In this document: piece after piece, positions 529 through 62,930 of the stretch
Position numbering within the stretch: the stretch's first letter is position 1
Layout of the letters: each line of letters begins with the position of its first letter
Position numbers and translations under genes: made by a program
Source: a virus
Taxonomy: Duplodnaviria; Caudoviricetes
Virus record (IMG/VR): IMGVR_UViG_3300032227_001336
Span: 1-64,000 of that record
Reading direction: 5' to 3' (one strand)
DNA length: 64,000 nt
Notes under the pieces: model-generated
What the model saw: only the letters and a program-made list of their open reading frames with translations
The model's database searches: none
What the model was told of the DNA's origin: nothing

Positions 529-535
529 ATTACAC
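529..535 (-). promoter_or_regulatory. GTGTAAT putative late-promoter motif
   Basis: 8 nt upstream of ATG at 520; one of about 24 such sites. Confidence 0.7.
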
Positions 536-541
536 TAATAT

Positions 542-829
542 TTAATCTTTAAATGGTATTAATTTTCTTCTTATAAATACTAAGTTAATAAAAAATCCAG
601 AAAAAGCACTTAATATATTAGAAACATAATCTAAAGTATAATCTTGAAATGGGTTTAAAAATAAAGTTAAAAATAAACAAACCCAAAAACTACTGCATTC
701 ATGACAAAGCAATGGCTTTCTGATATAAGGTATTCTAGCTACAAAATTTCTAAAAGGTCTGGAAGCTTCCGTATCAGACCAAGCGTAACTTACTCCAAGA
801 CAAACAAACAAGTACAGTAAAAATATCAT
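542..829 (-). CDS. small membrane protein with CxxC (DUF1360-like)
   Basis: Three hydrophobic segments; LLCHECSSFW resembles the LLxCxxCxxFW signature. Confidence 0.6.
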   Translation of the reverse strand: MIFLLYLFVCLGVSYAWSDTEASRPFRNFVARIPYIRKPLLCHECSSFWVCLFLTLFLNPFQDYTLDYVSNILSAFSGFFINLVFIRRKLIPFKD

Positions 830-1240
830 TTATAAAAAGTAAACATGAATAGAATCTTCTTTTTCTATAGCAGAAAAACTCCTAAAGACCTTTCCAGATG
901 TTACTCTCCATAAATTAGCCCAATCTTCTTCACTTTTACCAATTTTTATAATTTTACCGCTTAATATTTTTTCTGAATGCAAGGAGCTTGCGGAAGTTAT
1001 ATCTTTAATTAAATCTGGTCTATGATCTACATATTTATCAAAAATTGATTCATTTCCTGCAACTATTTTTTCGTTAAAAAATTTAGTAACCCTTCCTCTA
1101 CATGAGCAATTTGGATTCTCTCTAAAAGTCGTTAGGTCCGCTAAAATTTCTGGAAAATCGCGTTTAAGCTCTTCAAATGCGTCTTTATTTTGAAGAATTA
1201 TATTAATTATATTAGCTAGGTTATTTTTATCAATTTTCAT
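830..1240 (-). CDS. hypothetical protein with NPNCSC motif
   Basis: 136-aa ORF abutting the next gene (TAA directly followed by ATG). Confidence 0.7.
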   Translation of the reverse strand: MKIDKNNLANIINIILQNKDAFEELKRDFPEILADLTTFRENPNCSCRGRVTKFFNEKIVAGNESIFDKYVDHRPDLIKDITSASSLHSEKILSGKIIKIGKSEEDWANLWRVTSGKVFRSFSAIEKEDSIHVYFL

Positions 1241-1282
1241 ATATTATATTATATATGAATATCAATATATTTCTATTATTTT

Positions 1283-2083
1283 TTAAGAATTTATATATCC
1301 TTGAAAATTCAAATCAAACTTGCCATATTCATTAACTGAGAAATTATAATTTTTATTAGAGTAAATCATTTTATTTAAATTAAAACTTTTAACAATTGCA
1401 GAATTATTAATATTTTTAAAATTAACCTGTAAGTCTTTGGTCTGCAAATTAGAAAAGAAACTATAAGGAGAAGAAATAGATTCATCGCTTATTTCAAAAT
1501 TAAATCTACAAGAAACCTCTATAGGATATTCGCTAGTTACCGCAGAAGGTACATAATTACCAATTGTATATATTGGTAACTTTTTACAAGAATAAGAGAT
1601 CCCACAATTGCTTACTCTGTTTAAATTTGTTTCAGCCAAGTTAAAATCAATATAACAATAATTAATAGGCGAAATTTCATAATTAATAGCAGAATTATTA
1701 GTATTTATACCAGTCAGATAGCTTAATTCTCCTAATACTCTGCCTTGAACAGACACTTCTACTGGCCTATCAAGTTGAGCGTCTATAGAATAACCATCTA
1801 TAAAACCACTAGAAAAATACAAATATTTGTCACCATATTCAATTTTTCCTGTAAAAAAAGAATTACCAGTATAATCAATAAATGGCTCTGAAGTTCCAGG
1901 TATATAATTTAAATTAAAATTAGCAATAATTGGTTGATTTATTATATAATTCATACCAGTATTAGATATAGCAAATGAAGGAGTTATATTCGTATCATAA
2001 TTTAAGCTTAAACTTTGTATACCAGATATAAAAGTATTATTTAGGTAAAATTTTTGATTTTGAATCTGAGAAACATTAAACAT
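1283..2083 (-). CDS. tail tube-like structural protein (paralogue)
   Basis: Beta-strand pattern parallels the tail tube (GIQSLSLNY vs RVQTANYSF; PIYTIG..YPIEVSCRF vs PIERLG..FPLTVNLSV); motif 8 nt upstream. Confidence 0.55.
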   Translation of the reverse strand: MFNVSQIQNQKFYLNNTFISGIQSLSLNYDTNITPSFAISNTGMNYIINQPIIANFNLNYIPGTSEPFIDYTGNSFFTGKIEYGDKYLYFSSGFIDGYSIDAQLDRPVEVSVQGRVLGELSYLTGINTNNSAINYEISPINYCYIDFNLAETNLNRVSNCGISYSCKKLPIYTIGNYVPSAVTSEYPIEVSCRFNFEISDESISSPYSFFSNLQTKDLQVNFKNINNSAIVKSFNLNKMIYSNKNYNFSVNEYGKFDLNFQGYINS

Positions 2084-2091
2084 TAAATATA

Positions 2092-2114
2092 ATTACACCC
2101 TTTTTAAGTGTAAA
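2092..2114. promoter_or_regulatory. back-to-back divergent GTGTAAW motifs
   Basis: ATTACAC (2092-2098) and GTGTAAA (2108-2114) between divergent genes starting at 2083 (-) and 2135 (+). Confidence 0.7.
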
Positions 2115-2134
2115 TTTATAGAGGTTAAAGGTAT

Positions 2135-2671
2135 ATGGCAAGCGTTTACGACACAGTATATGGTTGGGCTGTAGGTACTACTTATAGTAAGTACAATATT
2201 GTATCTGGATCTAATAGCAAATATTATTATTCTTTAATAGATAATAATCTTGGAAACAATCCAACTACAATTGCTTATTTACAATCTGGATGGGATGGTT
2301 ATAAATTATTTAATTCTAGTTATATACCAAACTTTTTCTGGCAACCATCTTATCAATCCAGCACAAAAATTGAACCAAGAGTTAAAAAAATTCAATTTGG
2401 AAACGGATACCAACAAAGAATACCAGACGGTATAAATTTTGAACTTAAAAATTTAACTTTAACTTTTGAAAATAGATCAGAAACAGAAACAGTATCAATT
2501 TTACATTTTTTAGAACAAAGAGGCGGACAACAATCTTTCGCTTATAATGTTCCAACTATTTACGCAAAACCTTCTGGAGTTAGTAAATTTATTGCACCCA
2601 ACTGGGAAACTAATTATAATTTTTACAACAATTATAGTATTAAAACAGTATTTGAAGAAGTCCCAAATTAA
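2135..2671 (+). CDS. minor tail protein, lambda gpM-like (distal tail), with N-terminal CBM-like extension
   Basis: FFWQP..PRVKKIQFGNGYQQRIPDGIN..FLEQRGG..F..TVFEEV is the gpM signature; first gene of an M-L-K-I-J run. Confidence 0.9.
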   Translation: MASVYDTVYGWAVGTTYSKYNIVSGSNSKYYYSLIDNNLGNNPTTIAYLQSGWDGYKLFNSSYIPNFFWQPSYQSSTKIEPRVKKIQFGNGYQQRIPDGINFELKNLTLTFENRSETETVSILHFLEQRGGQQSFAYNVPTIYAKPSGVSKFIAPNWETNYNFYNNYSIKTVFEEVPN

Positions 2672-2677
2672 AATAAT

Positions 2678-4060
2678 ATGCCAACCTCTTTAGAAGTTTA
2701 CAATCAAATAGTAAGTGGATATAAATCCATAAATACAGAAACAAGTAAATTAGAACCATCTGTACCAGTAGTTTTTTATGAAATAGATTTAACTCAAATT
2801 TATCCACAGATTAGAAATACCACTACGTTAACAAATCAACCATTACAAAATGGTATTTTAAGAATATATAATGATTATAATTTATACAATTTATCAAGCC
2901 AACCCTATGGCACAATAACTTGGAAAAATAATCAGTATTTTCCAATGCCTGTTCATGCAGATGGATTTGAAATGAATAGCGCTGGAACTCTTCCAACTCC
3001 AAGAATTTTTATTGCAAATAGTAGCCCAGATACTTCAACAAATTCTTTTTATAAATATATAAGATTACAAATTCAATCTTTAGGAGATATAGTTGGCGCA
3101 AAATTTACAAGAATTAAAACTTTTTTAAAATATTTAAATGGTGTTAATTTTTCTGGAGGATTTAATCCATATACAGATGATCCATCTATATCTGAAATTG
3201 AGCTACCAAAAGATATTTACTATATTGATCGAAAATCTCAAGAAGATAATTTAATTTTAGAATATTCTTTAGGTTCTATTTTAGATGTTGAAGGAGTATT
3301 CTTGCCTTCAAGAACGATTTTTTCTAATAAATGTCCATTTGAGTATAGAGGCGAAGGATGTTTATATGAATACGATACCAGAAGATCTATCGCCCATAGC
3401 GGAGTTTATGGAGGAGTTGTTAATTCGAATGGAGTTAATATAAGATTACTACAAACTGCACCACCAGTTGCGACAGAAAATGACCAGCTTTTCTTGGGAT
3501 CGTCTGGTTCAGTTTTTGTTACTGGAGTCAATACATATGCAGTAAATAGAATTACTGGTGGAGCGGGTAATTTAGGAGCATGGAATACTGGGATATCCTA
3601 TACAAGTGGAGATTTTATATATCTACAAAATACAAGTAAATTAAATTATTATTTTGTATGTATCAATAATCATACATCTTCCTTAGAAAATTCTCCACCC
3701 AATACAACATTTTGGCTAGCAGATTCTTGTTCAAAAAGTATTTCTTCATGTAGATTACGATGGTTAAAAAATCCAGCTTTCAGGCCAGTTATTTGGCCAA
3801 CTAATAGAGGAGGATGGGATTTAAATTATTATAAATTAGCTGATAGAGCTATGAGAACAGCTGCAGACGCAACTAGTGTATTAAGTCCACCAACTTTCAC
3901 AAATACAGGAATCAACTCGCCATTTCCAAGGAGACCAGCTTGTTTTAATCCAAATTCAGATCTTTCACATGGAATACCAAAAGATTATTTAGGAAATTAT
4001 TTAAATGGATTTCTTCCATTTGGAGGATTCCCAGGAACAGATCAACCGAACAATCAATAA
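2678..4060 (+). CDS. tail tip protein, lambda gpL-like (Fe-S Cys motif)
   Basis: YEIDL, GFE..GTLPTP, YYIDRK, CPFEYRGEGC...CSKSISSCRLR, LPFGGFPG. Confidence 0.9.
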   Translation: MPTSLEVYNQIVSGYKSINTETSKLEPSVPVVFYEIDLTQIYPQIRNTTTLTNQPLQNGILRIYNDYNLYNLSSQPYGTITWKNNQYFPMPVHADGFEMNSAGTLPTPRIFIANSSPDTSTNSFYKYIRLQIQSLGDIVGAKFTRIKTFLKYLNGVNFSGGFNPYTDDPSISEIELPKDIYYIDRKSQEDNLILEYSLGSILDVEGVFLPSRTIFSNKCPFEYRGEGCLYEYDTRRSIAHSGVYGGVVNSNGVNIRLLQTAPPVATENDQLFLGSSGSVFVTGVNTYAVNRITGGAGNLGAWNTGISYTSGDFIYLQNTSKLNYYFVCINNHTSSLENSPPNTTFWLADSCSKSISSCRLRWLKNPAFRPVIWPTNRGGWDLNYYKLADRAMRTAADATSVLSPPTFTNTGINSPFPRRPACFNPNSDLSHGIPKDYLGNYLNGFLPFGGFPGTDQPNNQ

Positions 4061-4785
4061 TGAATACTAAAATTAAAAATAAAATAAAAAATCATGCCTT
4101 GGAAGAATCTCCCAAAGAATGTTGTGGTTTTGTTATTGAAAATAATGGGATTATAGATGTTTTAAAATGTAAAAATATATCTAAAGATCCAATTAATAAT
4201 TTTAAAATATCTGCTTTAGAATTTTTAAAAATAAAAAATTCATATAATCCACTTTATATTTATCACAGCCATTTAGATGAGGAAAATTTTTCTATGATGG
4301 ATAAAAATTGCGCAGAAGAATCATCTATAGATTTAATACTTTATATATTAAAAAGTAATACTTTTAAACATTACAGTTCTAATAATTCAGAAAGTTTAAA
4401 ATACATTGGAAGAAATATTAATTTTCAACAAACGAACTGTTTTGATTTAGTAAAATTATACTATAAAAATGAATTTAATGTAGATTTAAAATTTCCAGAA
4501 AATTTTATAAATGACCATATGCTAAAAGTAAATCAAGAAAATCTTGATCTAGTATTAGAATATGCAAAAATAAATAATCTAGAAGTAGATTATACTGATA
4601 AATTTATAAACCACGATATATTAGTATTTAATAGTGATAGTTATTTTCATTTAGCTATTTATTTAGGAAATGACAAGATTTTAGAACAACCTAGAAATGG
4701 ATTTTCAAAAATAACAAATTACTGTAATTTCTATAAGAGAAATAAAATAGCTAGACTAAGGAGATCAAAAAATGGTAACAGTTAA
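4060..4785 (+). CDS. tail tip assembly protein, lambda gpK-like (JAB/MPN plus NlpC/P60)
   Basis: PKECCG...YHSH..S..D JAB motif; NCFDLV...HLAIYLG NlpC/P60 Cys/His. Confidence 0.9.
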   Translation: MNTKIKNKIKNHALEESPKECCGFVIENNGIIDVLKCKNISKDPINNFKISALEFLKIKNSYNPLYIYHSHLDEENFSMMDKNCAEESSIDLILYILKSNTFKHYSSNNSESLKYIGRNINFQQTNCFDLVKLYYKNEFNVDLKFPENFINDHMLKVNQENLDLVLEYAKINNLEVDYTDKFINHDILVFNSDSYFHLAIYLGNDKILEQPRNGFSKITNYCNFYKRNKIARLRRSKNGNS

Positions 4786-5524
4786 TTTACATGGTAGATT
4801 AGGGGAAGAGATAGGAGAAACATGGCATTTAAATGTTACTTCTGTATCAGAAGCTATGAGAGCAATAGAAGCAAATACTAGAACCTTTAGAAAATGGCTA
4901 CTAGATAACTCTAAAACAAAAGGTTATTCTTCATACGCAATACTTATAAATAATAAACCAGTAGAAATTAAAAATCAAGAAAATATAAATGAATTTAAAA
5001 ATTCAGAAGTATTTATGGAATATGGAGAAAAACTTCAAACAATAGATCTTATACCAGAAGTAATGGGATCTCGTAGTGCTATATCATTTCTTGTTGCAAC
5101 AGTTTTAATTATTACAGCAATTTTTGTTCCTCCGTTAGCTCCAGTTTTAATATTAGGTGCAATTGGATTAATCGCTGCTGGTGTTACTAGTTTGTTAAGT
5201 AAACCACCACCACTTATTCCGTATAATGCGCAACAAGCAGATCCTATAAGCACTTCTGCAGGAGAAGTTGGAGGTCCAAGTTCTTATCTTTTTAATGGCC
5301 CAGTAAATACAGTTGGCGAAGGAGGACCAGTCCCAGTAGGATATGGTACTTTATTAATTGGATCAAATAATGTATTTGCATCTTATGATACTCAATATAA
5401 AACAGCTAGAAGAGGAGTTACTGCTGCTGGAAATACAGTATCTTCTGGATCTTATACGTATTTATTTAATTCTAATTGTAGATTGATGGGTCAAAAACCA
5501 ATAACAAACGAAATAAATTTCTAA
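4772..5524 (+). CDS. tail assembly protein, lambda gpI-like
   Basis: VNLHGRLG..EAMRAI ubiquitin-like domain, hydrophobic segment, SYLFNGPVNT..GGPVPVGYG. Confidence 0.9.
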   Translation: MVTVNLHGRLGEEIGETWHLNVTSVSEAMRAIEANTRTFRKWLLDNSKTKGYSSYAILINNKPVEIKNQENINEFKNSEVFMEYGEKLQTIDLIPEVMGSRSAISFLVATVLIITAIFVPPLAPVLILGAIGLIAAGVTSLLSKPPPLIPYNAQQADPISTSAGEVGGPSSYLFNGPVNTVGEGGPVPVGYGTLLIGSNNVFASYDTQYKTARRGVTAAGNTVSSGSYTYLFNSNCRLMGQKPITNEINF

Positions 5525-5525
5525 T

Positions 5526-8500
5526 ATGGCAGGAGCAACAAATCTTAGCACAGAAGGATTAGAGTACCTTTGGAATCCAGGAAACGAAGGATTAACTCTT
5601 GCTGGTATGAATTTTCCAGAAAGCGAATGTATAGATAGCGCTCCAGGAAATAATTCTTTTTCTTTTAGTGGTTATGACCCTAATGGAAATATTGATTTTG
5701 CTTTTAATAACGCAATAAGTGGATATAAAAGTTATTCTAGTCAAATAATGACATTTGACGGCGCTCCTGGATGGATATACCAATTGGGAAATACAGCAAT
5801 TGATTTGGCAGGTCCAGGAATTGCTTATCTTAGGGGTGCGCCAAATTTTAATAGTTTGTATTCAATTCTTTATGGCGGAGCTGCTTTTGATGCAGGAGGT
5901 TATGGTAAAACTACTTTAATAAGTGGTACAACTGGAAACGTTGGCGTAACAAGTATAAATAAAATAGGAGTTTTAGATTTAATTTGTGAGGGTCCAATTG
6001 AAGGATTTGTAACAGGAACTTATTTTTATAGTTATTCTGGAAAAAATACTGGAGATATTGGATATACTTCGTATTCTTTTATTCCATTTAATGCTTCTGG
6101 TTTTTATGGTGGATCAGAAGATGGAAACCAATATCTTGAATCTCCACCAGAATCTCGTTCAATTTTTTGGAATGATATTCCAATTGTTCAAAAAAATGGA
6201 GCATATAATTTTAAATCAGTAAACTATAAATATACCAAAGGCGATCCTAATTTACATACTCAAATGAGTCCCACAATAAATTTATTTGAAGATAGATATA
6301 GCTATTTTGGAAATCAAATAGATAAATTTAAATATCCTCTTGTAACTTCAAGAACAAAATCAATAAATGAAAGACTTTTTGGAGCAATTATAACTACTGG
6401 TATTTATGATGTTGGATTTCCTAAATCTTATAACGTATATAATACAGACATTTCTTCTATAAAATTAAATATTAAAATCAACGGATTAAGTCAAACAATT
6501 GTTGCTGTCGGATCTGGAAATCAAGGAGATGTTTATAAAGAAAATCTTAAAATTAATTTTTTATTATTCAGACTCTTTAAAGATGGTAGTACCGCATTAG
6601 TAGACGCTTCTCAATATTTTCCATATAAAAGTCAATATTATTTTAACCAAAGCATTTTACTAAAAGGAAAAATAAGTTCTCCAATGTTGACTTGTTATGA
6701 AATGTCTGTTAGACCATTTGCAGAAAATTTTCCATCTTTTCAAGTCATGCAAAATCAAGTTGGGTGGTCAATTACAGTAACAAAAATAACTCAAGAAGGT
6801 TTGCCTCCAGGAATAACAAATTCCTGTTCTGTAGATAGTATAACAGAAGTTTACAGCGACCGATTTGTTTATCCCAATGTTGCAATGGTTTATAATGAAT
6901 TTGATTCTAGATATTTTAATAGCGTTCCAACAAGAAGTTATAAAATGAGATTATTAAAAGTTAAAATTCCAAATAATTATGATCCAATTACAAGGAGTTA
7001 TAATGGTTATTGGGACGGCACATTTAAATTAGCATGGACAGATAATCCTGCTTGGTGTTATTATGATTTAATTACTAATAATAGATATGGATTAGGTAAA
7101 TATATTGATTCATCTTTAGTTGACAAATGGAATCTTTATGAAATTGCACAATATTGTGATCAATTAGTTCCAGATGGTAATGGTGGTCTAGAACCAAGAT
7201 TTACCTGTAATTTAATGATTTCAGCAAAAGATGAAGCTTATAAAGTTTTAAATGATATGGCTTCAATATTTAGAGGGATAACTTATTATTCTGCTGGATT
7301 AGTTTTTGCAAATCAAGATAGACCCAAAAATATTATTTATTCATTTAATAACGCAAATGTTGTAGATGGTAAATTTACATATTCAGATAGTTCAAGAAGA
7401 GTTAGAAAAACCGTAGCAACTATTAGATACAACAATGAAGATGATAATTATAAACCAGCAATAGAATATGTAGAGTATAGACCTGGAATATTAAAATATG
7501 GAATAAGAGAAATTGCAGTTACTGCATTTGGTTGTACAAGCAGAAACCAAGCAAGAAGATTAGGAAAATGGTATTTGATTACAGAAAATTTAGAAACGGA
7601 AACAGTAGTTTTTGATGCAGGATTAGATGCTGGATATCTTATTCCAGGAGATTTAGTTCAAATTTATGATCAAAATAGAAAAAATGTAAATTTTGCTGGA
7701 AGAACGAAAGAATTATCTACAGGATCTGCGACTCTTGATTTACCATATAACACTGGAATATTAAATAATTTAACTGGATTTAAGAGTAATTTTGATATTT
7801 ATTTCTTAACTCCTACTTATAATTTAAATTACGGAACAGACTTAGGTAATGATTATATAACTGGTTACAATATAACCTCAAGCGGTGCGACAGGATTAAA
7901 CTCCGATTTTTTTAGAAGAAGCGCTGTTCAAAAAATGACTATACCATTACCAACTCAAAACTATATAACAAGAGGAACTGGAGTTTATTCAGATAATATT
8001 AGAATAATATTTCCTTCTGGTTTGAACGGATCAGGATATAGTTTATTAGAAAATGCTGTATGGAATATAGATGTAAATATTAGTGGATATACTGGTATAG
8101 ATATTAGATCGCCAATAAATAATCCTTCTAATTTAACATATCCAGGCGCATTATACGATGGATATTTAAATGAACCACAAATTTATAGAATTTTAAATAT
8201 AAAAGAAGATCCAGAAAATAAAACATATAATGTATCAGCTATGCAATATGTACCAGCAAAATATGGAGAAATAGATTTAGATGCTCAATTAACAAATGTA
8301 CCTAATAAACCTCTAGTTCCTGGTGCACCAAATATAATTTTGAGTGGTTTATATAGAGATGCATTCGGCAATTTAACAGGATCAAATAGACTATTGTATC
8401 AAGGAGTTCAAACTGCAATTGGAATTAATAGCGTAGCGTATTCTACATCTCCATCTACAAATGGTTCTTATGTTAGTCAATATTTAGTTTACATGAGAAC

Positions 8501-8780
8501 GGGCACAGCTTTTACTAGCTTAACAAACGATCAAACAGATTTAATAGATATACAACCAGCTAATGTTAATACTGGATTTTACCCAACCGATCCAGTTAAT
8601 GGAAGAGATTTAGGGTTATATCCTCCATATTTTACTCCTCAATATGCTGGAACTTTTTACTTTAAAATTTATGCACAAAATTCATTAAACGAAGTATCAA
8701 CTCCAACATTAGGCTCTTTCACTTTGACTAGTCAAGCTCCTCTAGATAGAGTTAATGCTTCTGGAATTAACATATTATGA
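5526..8780 (+). CDS. central tail fibre / tip attachment protein, lambda gpJ-like
   Basis: LDLICEGPIEG, YPNVA, WDGTFKLAWTDNPAWCYYDL..RYGLG, EPRFTCN, FGCTSRNQARRLGKW, PGD. Confidence 0.92.
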   Translation: MAGATNLSTEGLEYLWNPGNEGLTLAGMNFPESECIDSAPGNNSFSFSGYDPNGNIDFAFNNAISGYKSYSSQIMTFDGAPGWIYQLGNTAIDLAGPGIAYLRGAPNFNSLYSILYGGAAFDAGGYGKTTLISGTTGNVGVTSINKIGVLDLICEGPIEGFVTGTYFYSYSGKNTGDIGYTSYSFIPFNASGFYGGSEDGNQYLESPPESRSIFWNDIPIVQKNGAYNFKSVNYKYTKGDPNLHTQMSPTINLFEDRYSYFGNQIDKFKYPLVTSRTKSINERLFGAIITTGIYDVGFPKSYNVYNTDISSIKLNIKINGLSQTIVAVGSGNQGDVYKENLKINFLLFRLFKDGSTALVDASQYFPYKSQYYFNQSILLKGKISSPMLTCYEMSVRPFAENFPSFQVMQNQVGWSITVTKITQEGLPPGITNSCSVDSITEVYSDRFVYPNVAMVYNEFDSRYFNSVPTRSYKMRLLKVKIPNNYDPITRSYNGYWDGTFKLAWTDNPAWCYYDLITNNRYGLGKYIDSSLVDKWNLYEIAQYCDQLVPDGNGGLEPRFTCNLMISAKDEAYKVLNDMASIFRGITYYSAGLVFANQDRPKNIIYSFNNANVVDGKFTYSDSSRRVRKTVATIRYNNEDDNYKPAIEYVEYRPGILKYGIREIAVTAFGCTSRNQARRLGKWYLITENLETETVVFDAGLDAGYLIPGDLVQIYDQNRKNVNFAGRTKELSTGSATLDLPYNTGILNNLTGFKSNFDIYFLTPTYNLNYGTDLGNDYITGYNITSSGATGLNSDFFRRSAVQKMTIPLPTQNYITRGTGVYSDNIRIIFPSGLNGSGYSLLENAVWNIDVNISGYTGIDIRSPINNPSNLTYPGALYDGYLNEPQIYRILNIKEDPENKTYNVSAMQYVPAKYGEIDLDAQLTNVPNKPLVPGAPNIILSGLYRDAFGNLTGSNRLLYQGVQTAIGINSVAYSTSPSTNGSYVSQYLVYMRTGTAFTSLTNDQTDLIDIQPANVNTGFYPTDPVNGRDLGLYPPYFTPQYAGTFYFKIYAQNSLNEVSTPTLGSFTLTSQAPLDRVNASGINIL

Positions 8781-52611: not shown

Positions 52612-52612
52612 A

Positions 52613-54387: not shown

Positions 54388-55327
54388 ATTTATGTCAGTT
54401 ATATGTAAAGTAGATGGAAAAGAATTTGCAAGTGATAAAGCTTTACATATGTCACTTAAAGGTTATGGTTTGAATAAAGTTAAATACTATCAAACATATT
54501 TTGAACGAAGAGATCTTCTAACTAACGAGCTTATTAATTTCAAAACTAAAGAGCAATATTTGAATAGTGATTTCAATGATAAAAATAATATGAAAAAATG
54601 GCTTAAGCAACAATCAGTTGAAAAAGCTCAAGAATATTGCAAGCAATTATTATCCAAAAGAAAACATGAGAAAAATTTAACTTATAGTCCTTCACAAGTA
54701 GAATTAAGAACAATTATGGCCCCGTCGATTGTTTTTTATAATAAAATATTTAATGATTATTATGATGTTTGCTCGAATCTCGGCCTAGAGAATAAATTTA
54801 TTCACCCAAATAACATAACTGATCAATTTAAAAATAAATTAAATAAAAAATCAATTATCTATGTTGATACAAGAGAACAGAGTTGGTTGAAATTTGATAC
54901 AAAGTTTGAAATTAAAACATTACCCTTCGGAGATTATTCTTGCAGTAATGATAATTGTAAATGTTTTATAGAAAGAAAAAGTTTAAGTGATTTTATAAGC
55001 ACGTTAAGCGTTAAAAACTTTGATAGATTTAAAAATGAAATAGATCGAGCAAAGAAAAGCGGCGCATATTTAATTGTTGTAGTAGAAGAGAAATTGACTA
55101 ATGCGTTAAGCTTTCAATATCTTCCGCATATTAGTAAAAAAATTAAAGCTACTCCAGAATATATATTTCATAATGTTCGAGAGTTACTTCAAAACTATGA
55201 TAATCTACAATTTCTTTTTGTAGATGGAAGAGGAGAGATGACAAGGGTAATTGAGTCTATTTTTACGTCAAATTGTTTTTACAAACAAGTAGACCTTCAA
55301 TTAGCTTATGATCTAAAACTATTATGA
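54380..55327 (+). CDS. ERCC4/XPF-family nuclease
   Basis: YVDTREQ..LPFGDYS..IERKSLSDF..RFKNEIDRA..VVVEE. Confidence 0.85.
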   Translation: MDKFMSVICKVDGKEFASDKALHMSLKGYGLNKVKYYQTYFERRDLLTNELINFKTKEQYLNSDFNDKNNMKKWLKQQSVEKAQEYCKQLLSKRKHEKNLTYSPSQVELRTIMAPSIVFYNKIFNDYYDVCSNLGLENKFIHPNNITDQFKNKLNKKSIIYVDTREQSWLKFDTKFEIKTLPFGDYSCSNDNCKCFIERKSLSDFISTLSVKNFDRFKNEIDRAKKSGAYLIVVVEEKLTNALSFQYLPHISKKIKATPEYIFHNVRELLQNYDNLQFLFVDGRGEMTRVIESIFTSNCFYKQVDLQLAYDLKLL

Positions 55328-57168
55328 TATACTCTCCAGATAAATATAAAAAAGATTATCCAGATGTAAATACAGAATTAATGAATCTTAAAGGTATTCT
55401 TAATGACAAAGATGCTAAAATTTCTCTTGCTAAATTTTTAAGAGCTAATTTAGGCTTTACTACTGAACTTATAAGTGGTATCAAATTAGCTCCATATCAG
55501 GAAATTCATCTTAAGGGTTTATTAAATAGAAACTTTAGTATGTGCGTATTTGGTCGAGGTTGTGGCAAGAGTTTTATCGCAAGCGTGTTTTGTTTTCTTC
55601 AATGTGTCTTTGAACCTAATACTAAAATTCTAATCGCAGGACCAACTTTCAGAACAGCTAGATTCATATTTAATAATCTAGAAAAAATTGTAAATAGTAA
55701 AGGCGCAGAACTTCTTCAACAAGCTTTTGGTTCAAAAAGTAAAAGAAATGATCAATATGAATGGTCAATTAATGGTGGAAGTATCGTAGCTATTCCTTTA
55801 AGCGGAGAAAAGATTCGAGGATTTCGAGCTAATGTATTAGTTCTTGACGAGTTTCTTCTATTATCAGAAGATATTGTTAAAACTGTATTGATGCCATTCT
55901 TGGTTGCTCCACAAAATATGAAAGAACGAATGGAAATTAGAGAAATGGAAGATACTTTAATCAGAGAAGGCATAATGAAAGAAGAAGACCGAATGGTTTT
56001 TGAAAATAATAGCAAAATGATAGCTCTTTCCTCTGCAAGTTATACATTTGAAAACCTTTATAAAACGTACAATGAATGGATAGAGAAAATTTATTCAAAA
56101 GAAGACACAGAAGCATCTTATTTTGTATCTCAATTAAGTTATGAAGCTTTGCCTTTGGAGATGATAGACAAAACAATTATTGAGGAAGCTCAAAATGGCG
56201 GCTCAAGTCATAGTAGTTTTTTAAGAGAATATTGTGCAAGATTTATTGATGGTAGTGATAGTTATTTTAGTGCAAAGAAGATGGAGGAATGCACTATTCC
56301 AAATGGCCAATCTCCTCATACTTTAATGAAAGGTGTTTCTGGAAAGAAATATATTCTTGGGATTGATCCTAATATGAGTGATAGTCCTAATGCTGATTAT
56401 TTTGCTATGGCCGTAATGGAAATTGATGAAGAAACTAAAACTGGAACGCTAGTTCATACATACGCTGGATTAGGAAATTTAAAAAATCACGTTAATTACT
56501 TGTATTATATCCTGACAAACTTCAATATTGTATTTATGATTTTAGATAATGCTGGAGCAGATGTATTTCTTTCTGCTTGTAATCAATCTGAGTTATTCAA
56601 AAATAATAATTTAAATATAAATAGTTTTGAATTTAATTCTGATTTGGAGGGACAAGATTATGATCAAGAAATTCGTAAAATTAGAAATAGTTATAATCTA
56701 GAATCAAAAAAAATAGCTTTTAATCAAGTCTTTACGAGTAACTTTATTCGCAAAGCTAATGAACACTTGCAAGCTTCTATTGATTATAAAAAAATATGGT
56801 TTGCTAGTAAAACTTGTGCTAATGATAGCTTTTTTGAGTCTCAATTCAGTCAAAATATACCAATAGATTTAATGAAAACAGAGGAAAAGAAGGATTGGTC
56901 TACTCTTGATTTCATTGAAAATCAAGATGATTTTATATATCAAACTAAAAAACAATGTACTCTTGTAGAGCATTCATCTACAGCCAGAGGAACCCAATCA
57001 TTTGACTTGCCTCAACATTTAAAAAGAAGTTCTTCTGCGAATAAAGCAAGAAAAGATAATTATTCTGCACTTTTATTAGTAAATTGGGGTTTAAAGTGCT
57101 ATTATGATATAATGAACGCTCCAACCGAGGATATATCAAGCACTTTTATGCCTATAATGATTAATTAA
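55324..57168 (+). CDS. terL: terminase large subunit
   Basis: LAPYQ, Walker A GRGCGKS, Walker B LVLDE, LSSA, FLREYCARF, RNase H-like LGID..KDNYSA. Confidence 0.92.
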   Translation: MIYSPDKYKKDYPDVNTELMNLKGILNDKDAKISLAKFLRANLGFTTELISGIKLAPYQEIHLKGLLNRNFSMCVFGRGCGKSFIASVFCFLQCVFEPNTKILIAGPTFRTARFIFNNLEKIVNSKGAELLQQAFGSKSKRNDQYEWSINGGSIVAIPLSGEKIRGFRANVLVLDEFLLLSEDIVKTVLMPFLVAPQNMKERMEIREMEDTLIREGIMKEEDRMVFENNSKMIALSSASYTFENLYKTYNEWIEKIYSKEDTEASYFVSQLSYEALPLEMIDKTIIEEAQNGGSSHSSFLREYCARFIDGSDSYFSAKKMEECTIPNGQSPHTLMKGVSGKKYILGIDPNMSDSPNADYFAMAVMEIDEETKTGTLVHTYAGLGNLKNHVNYLYYILTNFNIVFMILDNAGADVFLSACNQSELFKNNNLNINSFEFNSDLEGQDYDQEIRKIRNSYNLESKKIAFNQVFTSNFIRKANEHLQASIDYKKIWFASKTCANDSFFESQFSQNIPIDLMKTEEKKDWSTLDFIENQDDFIYQTKKQCTLVEHSSTARGTQSFDLPQHLKRSSSANKARKDNYSALLLVNWGLKCYYDIMNAPTEDISSTFMPIMIN

Positions 57169-57175
57169 GTGTAAT
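57169..57175 (+). promoter_or_regulatory. GTGTAAT motif upstream of portal gene
   Basis: Directly after TerL stop, 11 nt before ATG 57187. Confidence 0.65.
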
Positions 57176-57186: not shown

Positions 57187-59085
57187 ATGAAGAAAAATAC
57201 CAAAAAAATACAAGAAATTAAAGCATCTACAGAAGAGCAAATATCGCCATTAATGGTTTATGGTTCAGAAAGAAAATTAACAGCTTCAGAAGCAAGAGGA
57301 AGTTCACCAGTTAGAAGAAATACTGCTAGTACAATTGAAAGAACTAACAGGTTTACAAATATTGATACTGGAATTATTCCATTTAGATATTCTAATTATG
57401 TTAAAAATTTATCTACCCTAGATGTAAGAGATGCTGTTATACTTTGTCAAAAAGCTTATTATAATGTTGCAATTTTCAGAAACACAATAGATTTAATGAC
57501 AGAATTCTCTGCTAGTTCTATTTATTTAACTGGTGGAAGTCAAAAATCAAGAGAATTTTTCGATGCTTATTTTAAAAAGATTAATTTAACAAGTTTTCAA
57601 GATCAATTTTTTAGAGAATACTATAGAAGTGGGAATGTGTTTACTTATAGATTTGATACTTCTTTGGACTCTGAGCAAGTATTTAAAATAACTCAAGTAT
57701 TTGGTTCAAAAGCTTTGGCTAAAGATGGATCAATTAAAATTCCTGTAAGATATACTATAATTAATCCAGCAGATGTTTATGTTGGTGGTGGAGTAAATTA
57801 TTCTTATAATATATATTATAAACTATTAAGTAGTTACGAATTAGAAAAACTTAGAGATCCAAAAACTGAGGAAGATATAGAAGTTTACCAAGGATTACCA
57901 GACGATGTAAAAGAAAAGATTAAAAATAAAAGTAATTCTTATATTTTAGTTCCATTAGATCCTAAAAAGATGGCCGCAGTTTTTTATAAAAAACAAGATT
58001 ACGAACCACTCTCGATTCCAATGGGTTTTCCAGTATTAGATGATATTAACTGGAAATTAGAAATGAAAAAAATGGATATGGCAGTTACAAGAACAACTCA
58101 ACAAGCTATTCTTTTAGTTACTATGGGCAATGAGCCTGATAAAGGTGGAATCAATCAGAAAAATTTACAATCCATGCAACAATTATTTGAAAATCAAAGC
58201 GTTGGCAGGGTATTAATTGCAGATTACACAACTAAAGCTCAATTCGTAATTCCTGATATTGGAAGTTTAATTGGGCCAGAGAAATATGAAGTAGTTGATA
58301 GAGATATTCAAATTGGATTAAATAATATTCTTATTGGCAGTGAAAAATTTGCTAATACAAGTATTAAAGTCCAAGTTTTCATGGAAAGACTAAAGCAAGC
58401 AAGAGAAGTTTTCTTAAATGAATTTTTAATACCAGAAATAAGAAGAATTAGTAAAGATTTAGGATTTAAAAATTTTCCAGTACCAGTATTTGAAGATATT
58501 AGTCTTAAAGATGATGTACAATATTCTAGAATATACAATAGATTGGTTGAGCTTGGCGTATTAACTGCTGATGAAGGAATTCAAGCTATAGAAACTGGAA
58601 GATTACCTACTCCAGAAGAATCTGTACAATCTCAACAAAAATTTAGAGAATTAAAAGATCAAGGATTTTATCAACCACTTATTGGTGGTGGTGCTCAAGC
58701 TGGAAGACCTATGGGTTCAACTGGTACTCCTCAGTCTACAAAAAATGTAAAACCAATTGGTAGTTCAAAAGCCTTTTCTGTTCTTAAGATAAGAGAAAAT
58801 ATTTTAGCTGTTCAAGATCTTGAAGAAGAAGTCAAAGGTTCTTTAAGAAAAAAATTTGAAATCAAGAAATTAAGTAACGCACAAAAAGATATGGCAGAAA
58901 AAATTACAGAATTAATTATAGCAAATGAAGATTCTAGTCAGTGGAAAGCAAAAATACAAGATTATATTGAAAAACCATTTGATCAAAATTTAAATCAAGT
59001 AAATGAAATTCAATCAATTGCTTCCGAGCATCAAGTCGATAGTTATTTAGCTAGTTTATTGTATCACAGCAAAAAATCTGAATAA
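57187..59085 (+). CDS. portal protein
   Basis: Follows TerL; FRNTIDLMTEF, YYRSGNVF, GRP near C-terminus; 632 aa helical. Confidence 0.82.
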   Translation: MKKNTKKIQEIKASTEEQISPLMVYGSERKLTASEARGSSPVRRNTASTIERTNRFTNIDTGIIPFRYSNYVKNLSTLDVRDAVILCQKAYYNVAIFRNTIDLMTEFSASSIYLTGGSQKSREFFDAYFKKINLTSFQDQFFREYYRSGNVFTYRFDTSLDSEQVFKITQVFGSKALAKDGSIKIPVRYTIINPADVYVGGGVNYSYNIYYKLLSSYELEKLRDPKTEEDIEVYQGLPDDVKEKIKNKSNSYILVPLDPKKMAAVFYKKQDYEPLSIPMGFPVLDDINWKLEMKKMDMAVTRTTQQAILLVTMGNEPDKGGINQKNLQSMQQLFENQSVGRVLIADYTTKAQFVIPDIGSLIGPEKYEVVDRDIQIGLNNILIGSEKFANTSIKVQVFMERLKQAREVFLNEFLIPEIRRISKDLGFKNFPVPVFEDISLKDDVQYSRIYNRLVELGVLTADEGIQAIETGRLPTPEESVQSQQKFRELKDQGFYQPLIGGGAQAGRPMGSTGTPQSTKNVKPIGSSKAFSVLKIRENILAVQDLEEEVKGSLRKKFEIKKLSNAQKDMAEKITELIIANEDSSQWKAKIQDYIEKPFDQNLNQVNEIQSIASEHQVDSYLASLLYHSKKSE

Positions 59086-59104: not shown

Positions 59105-59824
59105 CTAATCAAGCTCTTCAAATTTTTCTATGATATAAGCTAATATATCATTTCTCATAATATCTTCGCGCCCAAATTTAAATGTGCATATACCCTTATC
59201 TTTACTTTTCTTGTCATCAAAAAGATTATATATCCTGTCAAACCCGCTATTCTTGATATCTGATTGACGAATATCTCCAATTAAAATTAATTTACTAAAC
59301 TTGCCCATTCTTGTAGTTATTAATAATAGATCATGTATGCTTAAATTTTGAGCTTCGTCACATATAATGTAACTAGCATTAATACTAAGTCCTCTTAAAA
59401 AGCCTACTGGTAATCCTTTTACTCGTTCTTGTTTTAGGAGCGTTTCTACCTGATTTTTTGGTAGTAATTCATGCAATTTATCCATTAATGGTTGAAGATA
59501 AGGATCAAGTTTACTATGAAGATCTCCTTTAAGAAATCCTAGATTATGAGTTGAACTTTCTACTGGATTACGTACATAAAATATTTCACCAATTTTTTTC
59601 TGATTTATAGCATTTAAAGCTGCATATACGCTAAGAAGACTTTTCGCTGTTCCTGCTGGGCCTTTACAAAATACCATTTTGGTATTTTTATCTTGAAGCA
59701 ATTGAATAAATTTCTTTTGATTATCTGTCCATTGTAATTCTCTAATAGTTAAGAAACCTTCAATTTTATCTCTTTGAGGAACAGGGACTGACTTATCTTC
59801 TTTTTGCTTATGTTTTTTAGACAT
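59105..59824 (-). CDS. phoH: PhoH-family ATPase
   Basis: GPAGTAKS, LGFLKGDL..K..PY, FLRG, ICDEAQN, TRMG, GDIRQSD, DIMR. Confidence 0.92.
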   Translation of the reverse strand: MSKKHKQKEDKSVPVPQRDKIEGFLTIRELQWTDNQKKFIQLLQDKNTKMVFCKGPAGTAKSLLSVYAALNAINQKKIGEIFYVRNPVESSTHNLGFLKGDLHSKLDPYLQPLMDKLHELLPKNQVETLLKQERVKGLPVGFLRGLSINASYIICDEAQNLSIHDLLLITTRMGKFSKLILIGDIRQSDIKNSGFDRIYNLFDDKKSKDKGICTFKFGREDIMRNDILAYIIEKFEELD

Positions 59825-59892
59825 TGTACTTACTGTAAATAATTACACCCCAATTGTATTAATTTTTAAATTAATTTTAATAAAGTTTAAAC

Positions 59893-60177
59893 TTAATTAA
59901 TTAAAGAATAACCTTCTTTAAATTTTAAATCTAAAGAAAATGAATTAACAGCTTGGCCTTCGTCAAATCTTTTAATAAAGTTTGCTCCAATTTTTGGCAT
60001 AACTGCAGTATATTCTTTGTTTTTAATTTTTATATTAACATGAGAAGGTAGTACTGAAATGCTAGTAATTTTACCTTTCATATTTTTTTTGATTGCTCTG
60101 GCGATTGCACAATTTTGAGGATTAGCTTTTTCTCCTTCAAAAATGTTTCTTTCTGTTATGTTTATTGTTTTATTCAC
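59893..60177 (-). CDS. hypothetical protein
   Basis: 94-aa ORF (NCAIARAI..FIKRFD), GTGA overlap with the previous gene. Confidence 0.7.
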   Translation of the reverse strand: MNKTINITERNIFEGEKANPQNCAIARAIKKNMKGKITSISVLPSHVNIKIKNKEYTAVMPKIGANFIKRFDEGQAVNSFSLDLKFKEGYSLIN

Positions 60178-60815
60178 TTTTTTATTTCCTCTATTTTATA
60201 GTTATAATTATTACTGTCTTCAGTAATCCATTTTGGACTATTTTCAGAAGTATAAATATGACTATTTATTTTTCTTTCCAAAACCAATTCATTTGGTTTT
60301 GTAGCGAAACTTGGATCAAAGACTTTAATTCTATTATTTGGTTGAATAGCAAAATTACCATTATCAAGTTTAATAACATGTCCAGCTTTGTGTTGATCTG
60401 GTTTTTGACTAAATCCAAAATTTAATTCATTATAATCACTATGCGCCCAATCAAGAGTAAATAAATAACTACCCATGTATTCCTTGCCAGTTCTTCCTGT
60501 ATATTTGAGTACTTTATTTTCTAATAAATAAAAGGTTGTTACAGCTATATGATAACTAAAGCTATCCCAAAGCTCTAACTCTGTTAATTCCATAGTTGGA
60601 GCATCTTCTTTATGACAAAACGCACTAATAGGCGCATGCCACCAAATTCCGCCATCTTCCATAAGAAAATTAAAAAGCGGAGCTTGGCTAGGAAGACTTG
60701 TAACACCAAAAATTAAACATTTATATTTTTTATCAAAACTATCTTCTTGATTCCTCATGTAATTTCCACGAACATAGCATTCGATAGGAGGAATATTTGC
60801 GTTCAAGAAAGACAT
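60174..60815 (-). CDS. hypothetical phage protein
   Basis: 213 aa (LNANIPP..YLFTLDW..HK..LDNGNFAIQPNNR); GTGTAAT 8 nt upstream. Confidence 0.78.
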   Translation of the reverse strand: MSFLNANIPPIECYVRGNYMRNQEDSFDKKYKCLIFGVTSLPSQAPLFNFLMEDGGIWWHAPISAFCHKEDAPTMELTELELWDSFSYHIAVTTFYLLENKVLKYTGRTGKEYMGSYLFTLDWAHSDYNELNFGFSQKPDQHKAGHVIKLDNGNFAIQPNNRIKVFDPSFATKPNELVLERKINSHIYTSENSPKWITEDSNNYNYKIEEIKK

Positions 60816-60824
60816 TTAATATTA

Positions 60825-62312
60825 TTACACTAATGATCCTGTTATATTTAATATAATATTGCTGTTTTTCCCACCAAAGTATAATCCATTACTGAAATCT
60901 ATTGTTAGTGCATTAGAATTGCAAGAGTTATGGGCTCTATCTTCTCCATCTCCAAGAATTGCTGCTCCACAATGATTAGCATTAATAATTGAACATCTAC
61001 CTCCTAGTATGGAACCGTAATTTGCACATACTTTATTAGATGATCCACCGCCAATAAAAGAATAATCTCCATAAGCTTTATTATATTGTCCATTGCCAAT
61101 AAATGAAAAAGATCCACTTGCATTATTTTCCATTCCATTTCCTATAAATGAAAAATATCCAGCATTAATAATATTATCCTGTCCATTACCAATAAATGAA
61201 TCAGGGCTACAAATTTTATTTGAATTTCCATAACCGATAAATGAACCATATGCATCGCCTCCGCCGTCGCCACCAGATATTATATTTGCAATTCCTCCGC
61301 CAATAAAAGAACCTTGTATTGCTAAATTACAAACTCCACCAATTATGATACTAGCATTAATTGCTTTATTTTTACATCCATGTAAAATTATAGAAGCAGA
61401 TTCTGTTTCATTTTCAGATCCTCCACCAATAAAATTAAAACCACAATATGCTTTATTATCAAATCCTCCACCTATAAAATCTCCATATGTAGCAGTTTCT
61501 TCATCTATAATTCCACTTACTAAATTACCCGCTCCACCAATAATTGTAGACCCCATTGATAAACATATTGTATTATCGCTGCCATTTAAAATTGTTCCAT
61601 AACAATTCGTTGTATTATTTTTTCCTCCGCCGATAAAATTACCATGATTGTATGCTTTATTTAAACATCCACCACCAATAAAATCTGGAGTTGCTTCCGA
61701 TAAATTTTGTCCACTAATAGCATTCATTCTTCCACCAAGAATTGTGGACATTCTTGAATTGCATATCGAATTGCACCATCCTCCTAATATATTATTTAAA
61801 GCAAAAATTCCACCTCCTGTTATTAAGTTTTCTAAACCACCACCAATAAATGACCAACTACCATCTATAGTATTATTTGCTCCATTTATTATTGATGATT
61901 GATATGATGGCGCATTACGGCTTCCAGGGCCAGTTTTAGGTCTTATAGTTATAAAATTACAACATCCTGCTCCAATTAAACTAAATGCGCTGCCAGCAAT
62001 ATTATTCCAACCTCCACCAATAACTACATACTGATCTATAGCTTGATTATCTGCTCCACCTCCAACAAATGCATATACATCTGCTATATTATTTTGCCCT
62101 CCACCAATTGATGCAAAATCTCCTGTGATAATATTTGCTGTTCCACCAGCAATTACTCCTCCTACGCTTAAAGCTTTAACGCTTGATTGACTTCCAAAAT
62201 CTGCTTGACCAGATGTTCCTAAAACTTCGTTTTTAATTATATATCTAGCGTCTAACTGACCAGAATCGGTTAATTGCTCGGTAAATATCTGAAGTCCATT
62301 AAATGTACGCAT
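60825..62312 (-). CDS. fibre-like protein with IGGGxxN beta-roll repeats
   Basis: Many ~14-aa FIGGGxxN repeats, several with Cys; GTGTAAA 8 nt upstream. Confidence 0.75.
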   Translation of the reverse strand: MRTFNGLQIFTEQLTDSGQLDARYIIKNEVLGTSGQADFGSQSSVKALSVGGVIAGGTANIITGDFASIGGGQNNIADVYAFVGGGADNQAIDQYVVIGGGWNNIAGSAFSLIGAGCCNFITIRPKTGPGSRNAPSYQSSIINGANNTIDGSWSFIGGGLENLITGGGIFALNNILGGWCNSICNSRMSTILGGRMNAISGQNLSEATPDFIGGGCLNKAYNHGNFIGGGKNNTTNCYGTILNGSDNTICLSMGSTIIGGAGNLVSGIIDEETATYGDFIGGGFDNKAYCGFNFIGGGSENETESASIILHGCKNKAINASIIIGGVCNLAIQGSFIGGGIANIISGGDGGGDAYGSFIGYGNSNKICSPDSFIGNGQDNIINAGYFSFIGNGMENNASGSFSFIGNGQYNKAYGDYSFIGGGSSNKVCANYGSILGGRCSIINANHCGAAILGDGEDRAHNSCNSNALTIDFSNGLYFGGKNSNIILNITGSLV

Positions 62313-62321
62313 ATCATATAT

Positions 62322-62930
62322 TTACACCAATATACCAGTTGTATTTAACAAGAAATTAGAATCAGTTGGATTGATTATAATATTATTGAAAAATCCTGTA
62401 TTATCCACTTTTAAATTCCCACCAGCTATGTGAACTTTTTCTTGTGGGTCAAATGTACCAAAACCTATTTTTTGTCCATTTTGCAAAGCAAAAACTCCAC
62501 TTTGCTCTATATGATTAAATCTTTCATCAATTGTATAGCTTGTTAGTATTCCTTGGCTAAAAAAAGCAGGAGGTGCTGGATTCGGAAATGGTATTGTTAC
62601 TCCAGTTTTATTTATTTGGATTGTGTTGTTTCCTTGGATTCTTCCAGGCACACTTGATCCTGTTACTATATACCATTTTTGAGTATTTATATGACGATTT
62701 AAATCTGCTTGACTAGAAAACGTAAAACTAAATTTGAATCCAGTAGCATAAACTCCACCAGGACCAAACGGAATTACGGATTCTGTTCCATTAGATAATA
62801 AATATCTTTGTATTGGTGTGGATGGTACAAAAGCATTATTTGTATATCCAGAAGCTATATATGCTGATCCACTCAGACTTGTAGATCCAAGTACTGTTAA
62901 ATTTCCTGTTATTAATGAGATATCTGCCAT
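62322..62930 (-). CDS. fibre-like virion protein
   Basis: KIGFGTFDPQEKVHIAGG fibre motif. Confidence 0.6.
   Translation of the reverse strand: MADISLITGNLTVLGSTSLSGSAYIASGYTNNAFVPSTPIQRYLLSNGTESVIPFGPGGVYATGFKFSFTFSSQADLNRHINTQKWYIVTGSSVPGRIQGNNTIQINKTGVTIPFPNPAPPAFFSQGILTSYTIDERFNHIEQSGVFALQNGQKIGFGTFDPQEKVHIAGGNLKVDNTGFFNNIIINPTDSNFLLNTTGILV

Follow-up and report, generated by a model that had tools for sequence, protein, structure and literature searches.

A short sequence, GTGTAA(T/A), stands before many gene starts in the first 64,000 bases (hereafter, the window) of the linear virus record IMGVR_UViG_3300032227_001336, which is 74,129 bp in length, is estimated to be 50% complete and has a G+C content of about 30%. 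The question raised by this locus is what the sequence does and which protein reads it. A previous sequence-only reading took it for a late promoter made of a single −10-like box, analogous to those of phage T4 and plausibly recognized by a sigma-like protein encoded at 52613–53299. The motif is a real and strongly supported feature of the DNA, from which we infer its promoter function, the position of the transcription start and the sigma factor that reads it. Our favoured explanation, to which we give a rough probability of 0.68, is that a phage sigma factor recognizes (A/G)GTGTAA(T/A) as a late promoter of one box, from which leaderless or short-leader mRNAs arise. The protein encoded at 52613–53299 is the probable, not the settled, reader. 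The computational tests that had been named beforehand came out in favour of a one-box promoter.

The motif was found at all the positions previously listed, always on the strand of the downstream gene (Table 1). Among the 27 copies of GTGTAAW in the window, 21 were located 5–38 nt upstream of a start on the same strand and one 99 nt upstream, while five were elsewhere (34353+, 36354−, 47157−, 54131+, and 58223−). Three further sites are variants, GTGTATA at 25782 and 44308 and GTGTAAC at 43813. The claimed spacing was also reproduced, the distance to the ATG being exactly 8 nt at eight window sites and 5–11 nt at 15; over the whole record, the gap between the 7-mer and the ATG was 8 nt at ten sites, 5–11 nt at nineteen and 17–38 nt at ten. 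GTGTAA was the top upstream hexamer of the 74-kb record, with 28 of its 37 copies (both strands) in sense orientation no more than 50 nt before a start. This represents a 33-fold enrichment before the 75 called starts (binomial, 1 × 10−32). Random start positions gave 1.08 ± 1.04 copies (maximum of 7 in 2000 trials), and the control forms were rarely upstream of starts (reversed, 2/21; complementary, 1/21; antisense, 3/37). The positional enrichment is thus strong with respect to composition-matched, reversed, antisense and random-position controls. As previously noted, a −35 element was not evident, the upstream columns carrying at most 0.35 bit in 28 sites and at most 0.25 bit in 340 unique pooled sites of relatives. 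The only informative upstream column was the purine directly 5′ of the box (A in 16 and G in 9 of 28 sites). The signal is therefore a single box, (A/G)GTGTAA(T/A). Several boxes lie inside the end of the preceding gene, GTG-TAA being its last codon plus the stop codon.

The occurrence of GTGTAA inside genes was analyzed in this record and in a near-complete relative of 133.6 kb (G001). Codons were shuffled within each gene (300 shuffles), and the hexamer was then ranked among 90 hexamers of the same composition. In the coding sequence of the record there were 3 sense and 3 antisense copies vs. 12.9 and 15.9 expected, a 4–5-fold under-representation that was alike in both orientations; in G001 there was 1 sense copy vs. 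18.6 expected and 6 antisense copies vs. 25.9. None of the 300 codon shuffles was as low as the counts observed in the two genomes, and GTGTAA was the most avoided hexamer in three of the four tests and ranked second in the other. Since the 90 hexamers had a median observed/expected ratio of about 0.9, the null model is sound. Given that the avoidance extends to the antisense orientation, the box acts on DNA and not on RNA, since a self-sufficient transcription start would be purged from genes and an mRNA signal would not.

In this regard, the boxes stand where promoters are required, in divergent gaps and directly after a strong terminator hairpin. The 51-bp gap 2084–2134 between the divergent genes 1283–2083 and 2135–2671 holds two outward-facing boxes and little else, and in the gap 52101–52173 the leftward virion gene has a box and the rightward operon has TGTATAAT (TATAAT). 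The presence of Shine-Dalgarno-like words varied with the position of the box. They were found in 0/21 genes of the record and 2/22 of G001 when the box was at most 12 nt away, in 6/8 and 6/12 when it was 13–40 nt away, and in 16/42 and 26/108 of the genes with neither kind of box.

It had been expected that the box would not be equally frequent before early and replication genes, and this was the case in G001, for which gene functions were taken from Pfam (Pol III alpha, DnaB, primase, ThyX, ribonucleotide reductase, ligase and others). The box preceded 23 of 65 genes of the virion/packaging block vs. 6 of 102 replication, nucleotide and early genes (Fisher, p = 1.5 × 10−6), while strict sigma-70-type promoters had the opposite distribution (1/65 virion-block vs. 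16/102 other genes). In addition, three G001 genes of unknown function at 95.7–99.7 kb all carry a box. The replication, sugar and nucleotide-metabolism genes of G001 have TTGACA-N16-18-TAnnnT promoters whose −10 hexamer mostly ends 6 nt before the ATG, and GTGTAAT mostly ends 7–8 nt before it, so that, with TGTAAT aligned to TATAAT, the geometry is the same as that of the ordinary promoters of the clade. A general scan of positions 1–20000 for sigma-70-type promoters gave no enrichment (82 vs. 110.9 in shuffles). A phage RNA polymerase was not found in Pfam scans of 71 open reading frames (ORFs) of the window and record and of 116 of the 174 ORFs of G001, a scan that covered G001 except for its 23–54-kb virion part, ORFs below 70 aa and six ORFs across fetch boundaries.

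Other promoter-like elements were observed along with the boxes. At 71.7–74.1 kb of the record, outside the window, three small genes each follow the arrangement TTG(aca)-N about 12-TGTGATAGATT-N6-ATG; these are sigma-70-type promoters with a TGTG extended −10 and a leaderless placement, and they probably mark where the early region begins. A TATAAT box with a poor −35 lies at 1248–1275 (−), 7 nt before the ATG of ORF 830–1240. The TATAAT box at 52161–52168 (+) also has a poor −35, and G001 has counterparts before 2830–3639, 14544, 41536, and 64219. Such boxes may form a −10-only "middle" class apart from the early −35/−10 and the late GTGTAAT classes. A separate "middle" class marked by the hexamer TTAGAT was considered and rejected, this hexamer being common (120 and 222 copies) and not specific to starts.

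With respect to the candidate reader, the ORF at 52613–53299 encodes, as the sequence-only reading suggested, a divergent sigma-70-family protein of 228 aa. Its region 2 matched Pfam PF04542 (Sigma70_r2) at residues 32–79 with 28.5 bits for a cut-off of 24 (30.4 bits in a six-frame search). The match to TIGR02937, the model of the extracytoplasmic function (ECF) superfamily, reached 36.9 bits over residues 29–193, below the cut-off of 42.9, and the protein is thus a divergent relative and not a curated member of this family. Pfam did not reveal any region-4 match in it. Four invariant cysteines (C87, C90, C106, and C109) lie between its two halves. In the predicted structure, of moderate confidence with a predicted local distance difference test (pLDDT) score of 71.8, most of the 50 fold matches listed were sigma factors. 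Model residues of about 145–225 superposed on SigD4, a −35-binding sigma-4 domain (62/62 residues, 1.8 Å), with a Z score of 8.7, a value of about 8 being moderate for helical folds, and the C-terminal domain of this model matched region 4 of sigma-E with a Z score of 8.3. A comparison of the sequence with solved structures gave nothing below an E value of 0.04, no PHROGs family was found, and tblastn against 50,697 GenBank phage records gave no match. The family to which it belongs is large, with more than 1,869 homologues and with 417 clusters at 50% identity.

The sigma gene is part of an operon (52174–57168) that also encodes a zinc-ribbon-like protein of 145 aa, an ERCC4-type nuclease and the large terminase. 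In all of the 33 unique relatives listed, TATAAT was found 5–8 nt (mostly 7–8 nt) before the ATG of this operon and a sense GTGTAA in none, which fits a regulator that is made before the late promoters fire. The 145-aa protein (52174–52611, +) lies directly upstream of the sigma gene, a position that is kept in the 33 unique relatives. Its length in relatives is 138–151 aa in most and 124–125 aa in two, and its G001 orthologue showed weak N-terminal zinc-ribbon matches; it could be a cofactor or an anti-sigma factor.

The co-occurrence of the motif with a homologue of this sigma in related viral contigs was confirmed in a set of 146 loci. In 80 loci with sigma homologues of 65–100% identity, GTGTAA led the upstream hexamers at 44 loci, 41 of which belong to the 60 loci of at least 10 kb, and 301 of the 536 pooled copies were upstream of starts. 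In the 66 loci of distant homologues it was on top in 13, with 157 of 380 pooled copies upstream of starts. In a distant complete genome of 146.9 kb and 40.5% GC (G008), GTGTAA was also the top upstream hexamer (27/54, 4 × 10−21). The box before the 632-aa gene was unchanged in 26/26 unique relatives; the next 11–13 bases vary. Two unrelated low-GC siphoviruses, phiCD211 and Basilisk, showed no enrichment of GTGTAA (1/22 and 2/34, respectively), AGGAGG being their top hexamer. A covariation of sigma and motif was also sought and dropped, as there were no clades with a changed box to compare and the distant sigma clades still show GTGTAA.

Taken as a mechanism, the favoured explanation would proceed in three steps. 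The host sigma-70 RNA polymerase would transcribe the early genes and the operon 52174–57168 from TATAAT-type promoters, this operon would yield the phage sigma-70-family protein, and this protein would then take the place of the host sigma on the core enzyme of the host, which would thereby be guided to the GTGTAAT boxes of virion, tail and other late genes. The box is −10-like (TGTAAT vs. TATAAT), with a G at the canonical −11 A and without a −35 partner. By analogy with other −10-type boxes, transcription may start about 6–8 nt downstream of it. With the usual gap of 7–8 nt, the 5′ end would fall at the ATG or 1–2 nt before it, and the message would thus be leaderless and without a ribosome-binding site. 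When the box is 17–99 nt upstream, a leader would be produced instead, usually with a Shine-Dalgarno-like stretch.

Three other explanations were weighed. A function of the box in RNA is extremely improbable, be it in ribosome binding or translation enhancement instead of the Shine-Dalgarno sequence or in a cleavage that would cut messages back to the start codon. The usual gap of 5–11 nt to the ATG is within the range of ribosome-binding sites, and the genes with a close box are without Shine-Dalgarno-like words; against this stand the antisense avoidance in genes, which is as strong as the sense one, the boxes in divergent gaps and directly after a terminator, and the ordinary −35/−10 promoters of the clade, which lie at an equal distance from the ATG. 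Nor is the box itself a Shine-Dalgarno-type site, since ten sites of the record are 17–38 nt off and most of them have a separate Shine-Dalgarno-like stretch of their own. We also consider it very unlikely that the box is an unusual promoter of the host primary sigma, either −10-only or resembling the extended −10 type, with no part for either phage sigma; a phage protein might first shut off initiation that depends on the −35 element, as happens in the Thermus phage P23-45. TGTAAT equals TATAAT at five of six positions, although this register puts a G at −11, which the primary sigma does not accept. The alternative register, GTG-TAATnn, has T-12, A-11, a TG-like element upstream and a 6-nt gap to the ATG as in sigma-70-type promoters; in it, however, the usual single spacer base between the TG and the hexamer is missing, and only about half of the sites have a T at −7. 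The box does not fit the extended −10 (TGnTATAAT) in either register. Moreover, the six box positions, both Gs included, are far stricter than the −10 hexamers of the sigma-70-type promoters of the clade, and the motif tracks phages encoding the 228-aa sigma family and is not enriched in the two other low-GC phages. [quoted passage not shown]

The remaining alternative keeps the late promoter and changes its reader, which would be a second ECF-like sigma encoded in a region absent from the 74-kb record, the protein at 52613–53299 having some other role. In complete relatives, the nucleotide-metabolism region contains the gene of this second sigma (about 210 aa), for which the viral collection yielded 38 loci; the present record ends before the region where it would lie. 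G001 and G008 have two sigma-ECF-like ORFs each, and a further genome (G009) has both kinds. The second sigma of G001 (102820–103449) is the better canonical ECF sigma, with 47.1 bits for TIGR02937, above the cut-off, and regions r2 and r4 in order; that of G008 (94735–95247) reached 34.4 bits. In addition, only one phage-specific class of upstream motif was seen in G001 and G008, which leaves one of the two sigmas without visible targets. However, canonical ECF sigmas normally need a −35 element and none is present here, the 228-aa family is the one found beside the motif in 146 loci, and its gene belongs to the packaging operon, whose promoter is not of the GTGTAA kind, as one would expect for a late regulator. 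Three fragments (G002–G004) have the motif and the first sigma and no second sigma in the part present, a weak point as they are 57–65% complete. Altogether, we judge this alternative unlikely.

It must be considered that several observations weigh against a one-box promoter read by the 228-aa sigma. The total number of GTGTAAW copies in the window is not above chance (27 vs. 20.4 ± 4.4 in dinucleotide shuffles, 8 of 100 of which reached 27), so that the case rests on placement, and the starts that define this placement came from a simple ORF caller that prefers ATG (75 starts on the 74-kb record). The family scores of the sigma are marginal (36.9 vs. 42.9 bits, fold Z scores of about 8–9 for a helical protein, pLDDT of 71.8), and a sigma-4-like domain is present yet a −35 element is not. 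The complete or near-complete relatives carry the second ECF-like sigma and therefore co-occurrence cannot name the reader; besides, the loci from related contigs are not mutually independent, and in the distant sigma clades only 19/66 loci were significant at p < 1 × 10−3. The avoidance of GTGTAA in genes was not marked in G008 (rank 22 and 17 of 90), which bears on its generality, and the six boxed genes among the 102 non-virion genes of G001 include that of the small ribonucleotide reductase subunit. Finally, the RNA contigs described below are evidence neither way on start sites.

Late control by a phage sigma at one-box promoters is textbook knowledge from T4 and phiEco32. At the T4 late promoters (TATAAATA), the reader is gp55, a region-2-only protein without a sigma-4-like domain; it depends on gp33 and on the sliding clamp loaded on DNA. 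The present system would resemble T4 in having a −10-like late promoter of one box and in its recognition by a sigma-family protein of the phage bound to host core enzyme. It differs in its two-domain sigma, in that no cofactors of the gp33 or clamp type were identified, and in a box that contains G, T4's being pure A/T. The analogy with T4 drawn in the sequence-only reading thus holds for the way of working and fails for family membership, the sigma here having a sigma-4-like domain. The middle/late promoters of the Escherichia phage phiEco32 consist of the single element tAATGTAtA, are read by the phage sigma gp36, which has no homology to region 4, and start transcription 6–8 bp downstream (PMC8948821). 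The systems are alike in a single box without −35 and in the core TGTA shared by both boxes, they would be alike in a phage sigma as the reader, and they differ in the sequence of the box and in the sigma, which here has a sigma-4-like domain and a four-cysteine insert. Here, moreover, the box abuts the start codon and most messages would be leaderless. The comparison of the family profile with gp36 by hhalign gave a probability of 0.07% and so detected no relation between the two sigma sequences, although a remote homology may escape a single-sequence template (gp36) and a shallow query profile.

The transcripts of P23-45 are reportedly largely leaderless, as Berdygulova et al. are said to have found in 2011. 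The extended −10 middle/late promoters of this phage likewise have no −35 element (PMC7403470). Unlike what is proposed here, P23-45 relies on the primary sigma of its host, together with the phage inhibitors gp39 and gp76, and on no phage sigma; its box is of the canonical TGnTATAAT type. The late promoters of Salmonella phage 7-11 (GTAAtg-N16-aCTA) are read by an ECF-like sigma, gp47, with a region-4-like C-terminus (PMC8948821). The sigma studied here would likewise be an ECF-like phage sigma that reads late promoters, whereas the 7-11 promoters are bipartite and no second element was detectable in ours; in phage 7-11, a region-4 sigma uses a bipartite promoter, and the missing −35 of the present boxes is therefore notable. 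Phages AR9 and phiKZ also have short phage-specific late boxes close to the start site (AACA-N6-TA/G and TATG, respectively, with AR9 leaders of 26–491 nt; PMC5312081). These are read by phage-encoded multisubunit RNA polymerases, and no phage RNA polymerase was found here in the Pfam scans.

Table 1. Boxes and associated features in the window (positions on the 64,000-base stretch).
Feature	Position	Strand	Context
GTGTAAT box	529–535	−	8 nt before ATG of ORF 185–520
GTGTAAT box	2092–2098	−	8 nt before ATG of ORF 1283–2083; half of divergent pair
GTGTAAA box	2108–2114	+	20 nt before ATG of minor tail gene 2135–2671; GAGG/AAGG Shine-Dalgarno-like stretch between
GTGTAAT box	16911–16917	−	23 nt before tape-measure gene 10210–16887; Shine-Dalgarno-like stretch between
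Intrinsic terminator (14-bp hairpin and U-run)	19219–19251	−	few bases before next box; −20 kcal/mol, z −6.3, 0/200 shuffles as good
GTGTAAT box	19209–19215	−	directly after terminator; 38 nt before ORF 18946–19170
GTGTAAT box	20414–20420	−	24 nt before ORF 19274–20389; 4-codon mini-ORF begins 8 nt after box
GTGTAAT box	22867–22873	−	9 nt before ORF 22348–22857
Tandem boxes, GTGTAAT (25791–25797) and GTGTATA (25782–25788)	25782–25797	−	18 and 9 nt before ORF 22896–25772; 25791–25797 overlaps stop codon of ORF 25792–26691
GTGTAAT box	26971–26977	−	8 nt before ORF 26723–26962
GTGTAAT box	36185–36191	−	99 nt before 1765-aa baseplate/fibre gene 30788–36085; long leader ends in AAGGA
GTGTAAT box	37003–37009	−	23 nt before ORF 36200–36979
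GTGTAAT box	37983–37989	−	8 nt before ORF 37573–37974
GTGTAAT box	40486–40492	−	8 nt before ORF 39821–40477
Variant GTGTAAC	43813–43819	−	22 nt before ORF 42279–43790
Variant GTGTATA	44308–44314	−	7 nt before ORF 43794–44300
GTGTAAT box	44559–44565	−	within end of 44550–45863; 8 nt before 49-aa ORF 44401–44550
GTGTAAT box	45871–45877	−	overlaps stop codon of 45872–46498; 7 nt before ORF 44550–45863
GTGTAAT box	49277–49283	−	5 nt before ORF 48987–49271
GTGTAAA box	50303–50309	−	6 nt before ORF 49319–50296
GTGTAAA box	52119–52125	−	18 nt before virion gene 50316–52100; GAGG/AAGG between
TGTATAAT, sigma-70-type −10 box	52161–52168	+	5 nt before ATG of operon 52174–57168; no GTGTAA box here
Sigma-70-family protein, 228 aa, candidate box reader	52613–53299	+	region 2, four-cysteine insert, sigma-4-like C-terminal domain
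GTGTAAT box	57169–57175	+	between large terminase and 632-aa gene 57187–59085; 11 nt before ATG
GTGTAAT box	59842–59848	−	17 nt before PhoH-like gene 59105–59824
GTGTAAT box	60824–60830	−	GTG-TAA is last codon and stop of 60825–62312; 8 nt before ORF 60174–60815
GTGTAAA box	62321–62327	−	GTG-TAA is last codon and stop of 62322–62930; 8 nt before ORF 60825–62312

Some of the sites in Table 1 show additional features. At 20389–20420 (−), and at 44875–44906 of G001, the ATG located 8 nt past the box opens a mini-ORF of four codons (MEKQ-stop; in G001, MENN-stop) whose stop is one base before the main ATG and whose GGAG could act as the Shine-Dalgarno sequence of the main gene. A similar mini-ORF of seven codons overlaps the start of 36200–36979. 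From 60174 to 63756, and on to position 68309 of the record, a series of paralogous genes encodes proteins with the C-terminal ending (I/T/V)TG(S/I/T)(L/I)V-stop. Most members are followed after 7–8 nt by another gene, often of about 90 aa, and the final Val codon plus TAA encodes the box; some members showed a weak match to the beta-roll family PF21300.

The gene content of the record is that of a long-tailed phage, with a tape-measure protein of 2225 aa, minor tail proteins of the M/L/J type, a large terminase and a PhoH-like protein, and many of its ORFs have no family assignment. In the tail region, 26978–30781 (−) encodes a protein of 1267 aa with Kelch/beta-propeller repeats and 30788–36085 (−) one of 1765 aa in which the lower-baseplate N-terminal domain BppL_N occurs three times. 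G001 carries, at 65–68 kb and 79–94 kb, a large block with around a dozen glycosyltransferases, enzymes of the GDP-mannose dehydratase/epimerase type and methyltransferases, transcribed together with the replication genes. A blastn search of window positions 40001–48000 against GenBank phages (50,697 records) gave no match. Among the matches listed for the large terminase in the same phages, identity was about 25–27%, mostly to Bacillus, Synechococcus, Lactococcus, and Clostridium phages, large siphoviruses of Bacillus and Clostridium included. In genomes of 185,579 species, the sigma profile was found at four loci, all in metagenome bins (three with Flavobacteriales-type labels and one Pseudomonadales); they probably represent phage contigs that were co-binned, and as a clue to the host they are weak at best. 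The TTGACA/TATAAT early promoters of the clade are, we assume, not Bacteroidota-like in appearance.

Related sequences were also found in lake RNA. Three lake-water metatranscriptomes contain 7–16% of the words sampled from 40001–50000. Of the region 36001–56000, metatranscriptome contigs mainly covered 40.8–43.8 kb, some pieces with 0–1 differences over 150–224 nt, and a contig of 1,694 nt from a relative spans 40797–42436. These data are assembled contigs in which starts, strand and expression level are not readable, DNA may be present in RNA libraries, and the uncovered parts are uninformative.

No paper on GTGTAA(T) as a phage promoter came up in full-text literature searches, in which the matches were primers or unrelated work. 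What would be new here is a different and very widespread sigma family with a new box for a known kind of late control. As a broader and tentative proposal, which we hold to be possible rather than probable, late genes throughout a widespread clade of aquatic phages of 75–180 kb would be under the master control of this unstudied sigma family; the family would read a box of 6–7 bp with G in place of the −11 adenine and without −35 contact despite its sigma-4, and nearly all transcription units, the early ones as well as the late ones, would be leaderless, with the promoter abutting the ATG. With the help of the box, late genes and transcription units could readily be annotated in thousands of contigs from uncultured phages of lakes and the sea, and a strict 7-bp promoter together with its small sigma might be used as an orthogonal pair for expression. 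The system is also a test case for a sigma-2 domain that reads G where the primary sigma needs A. Finally, the genome-wide leaderless layout, which is common to the early sigma-70-type promoters, would inform on translation in the host.

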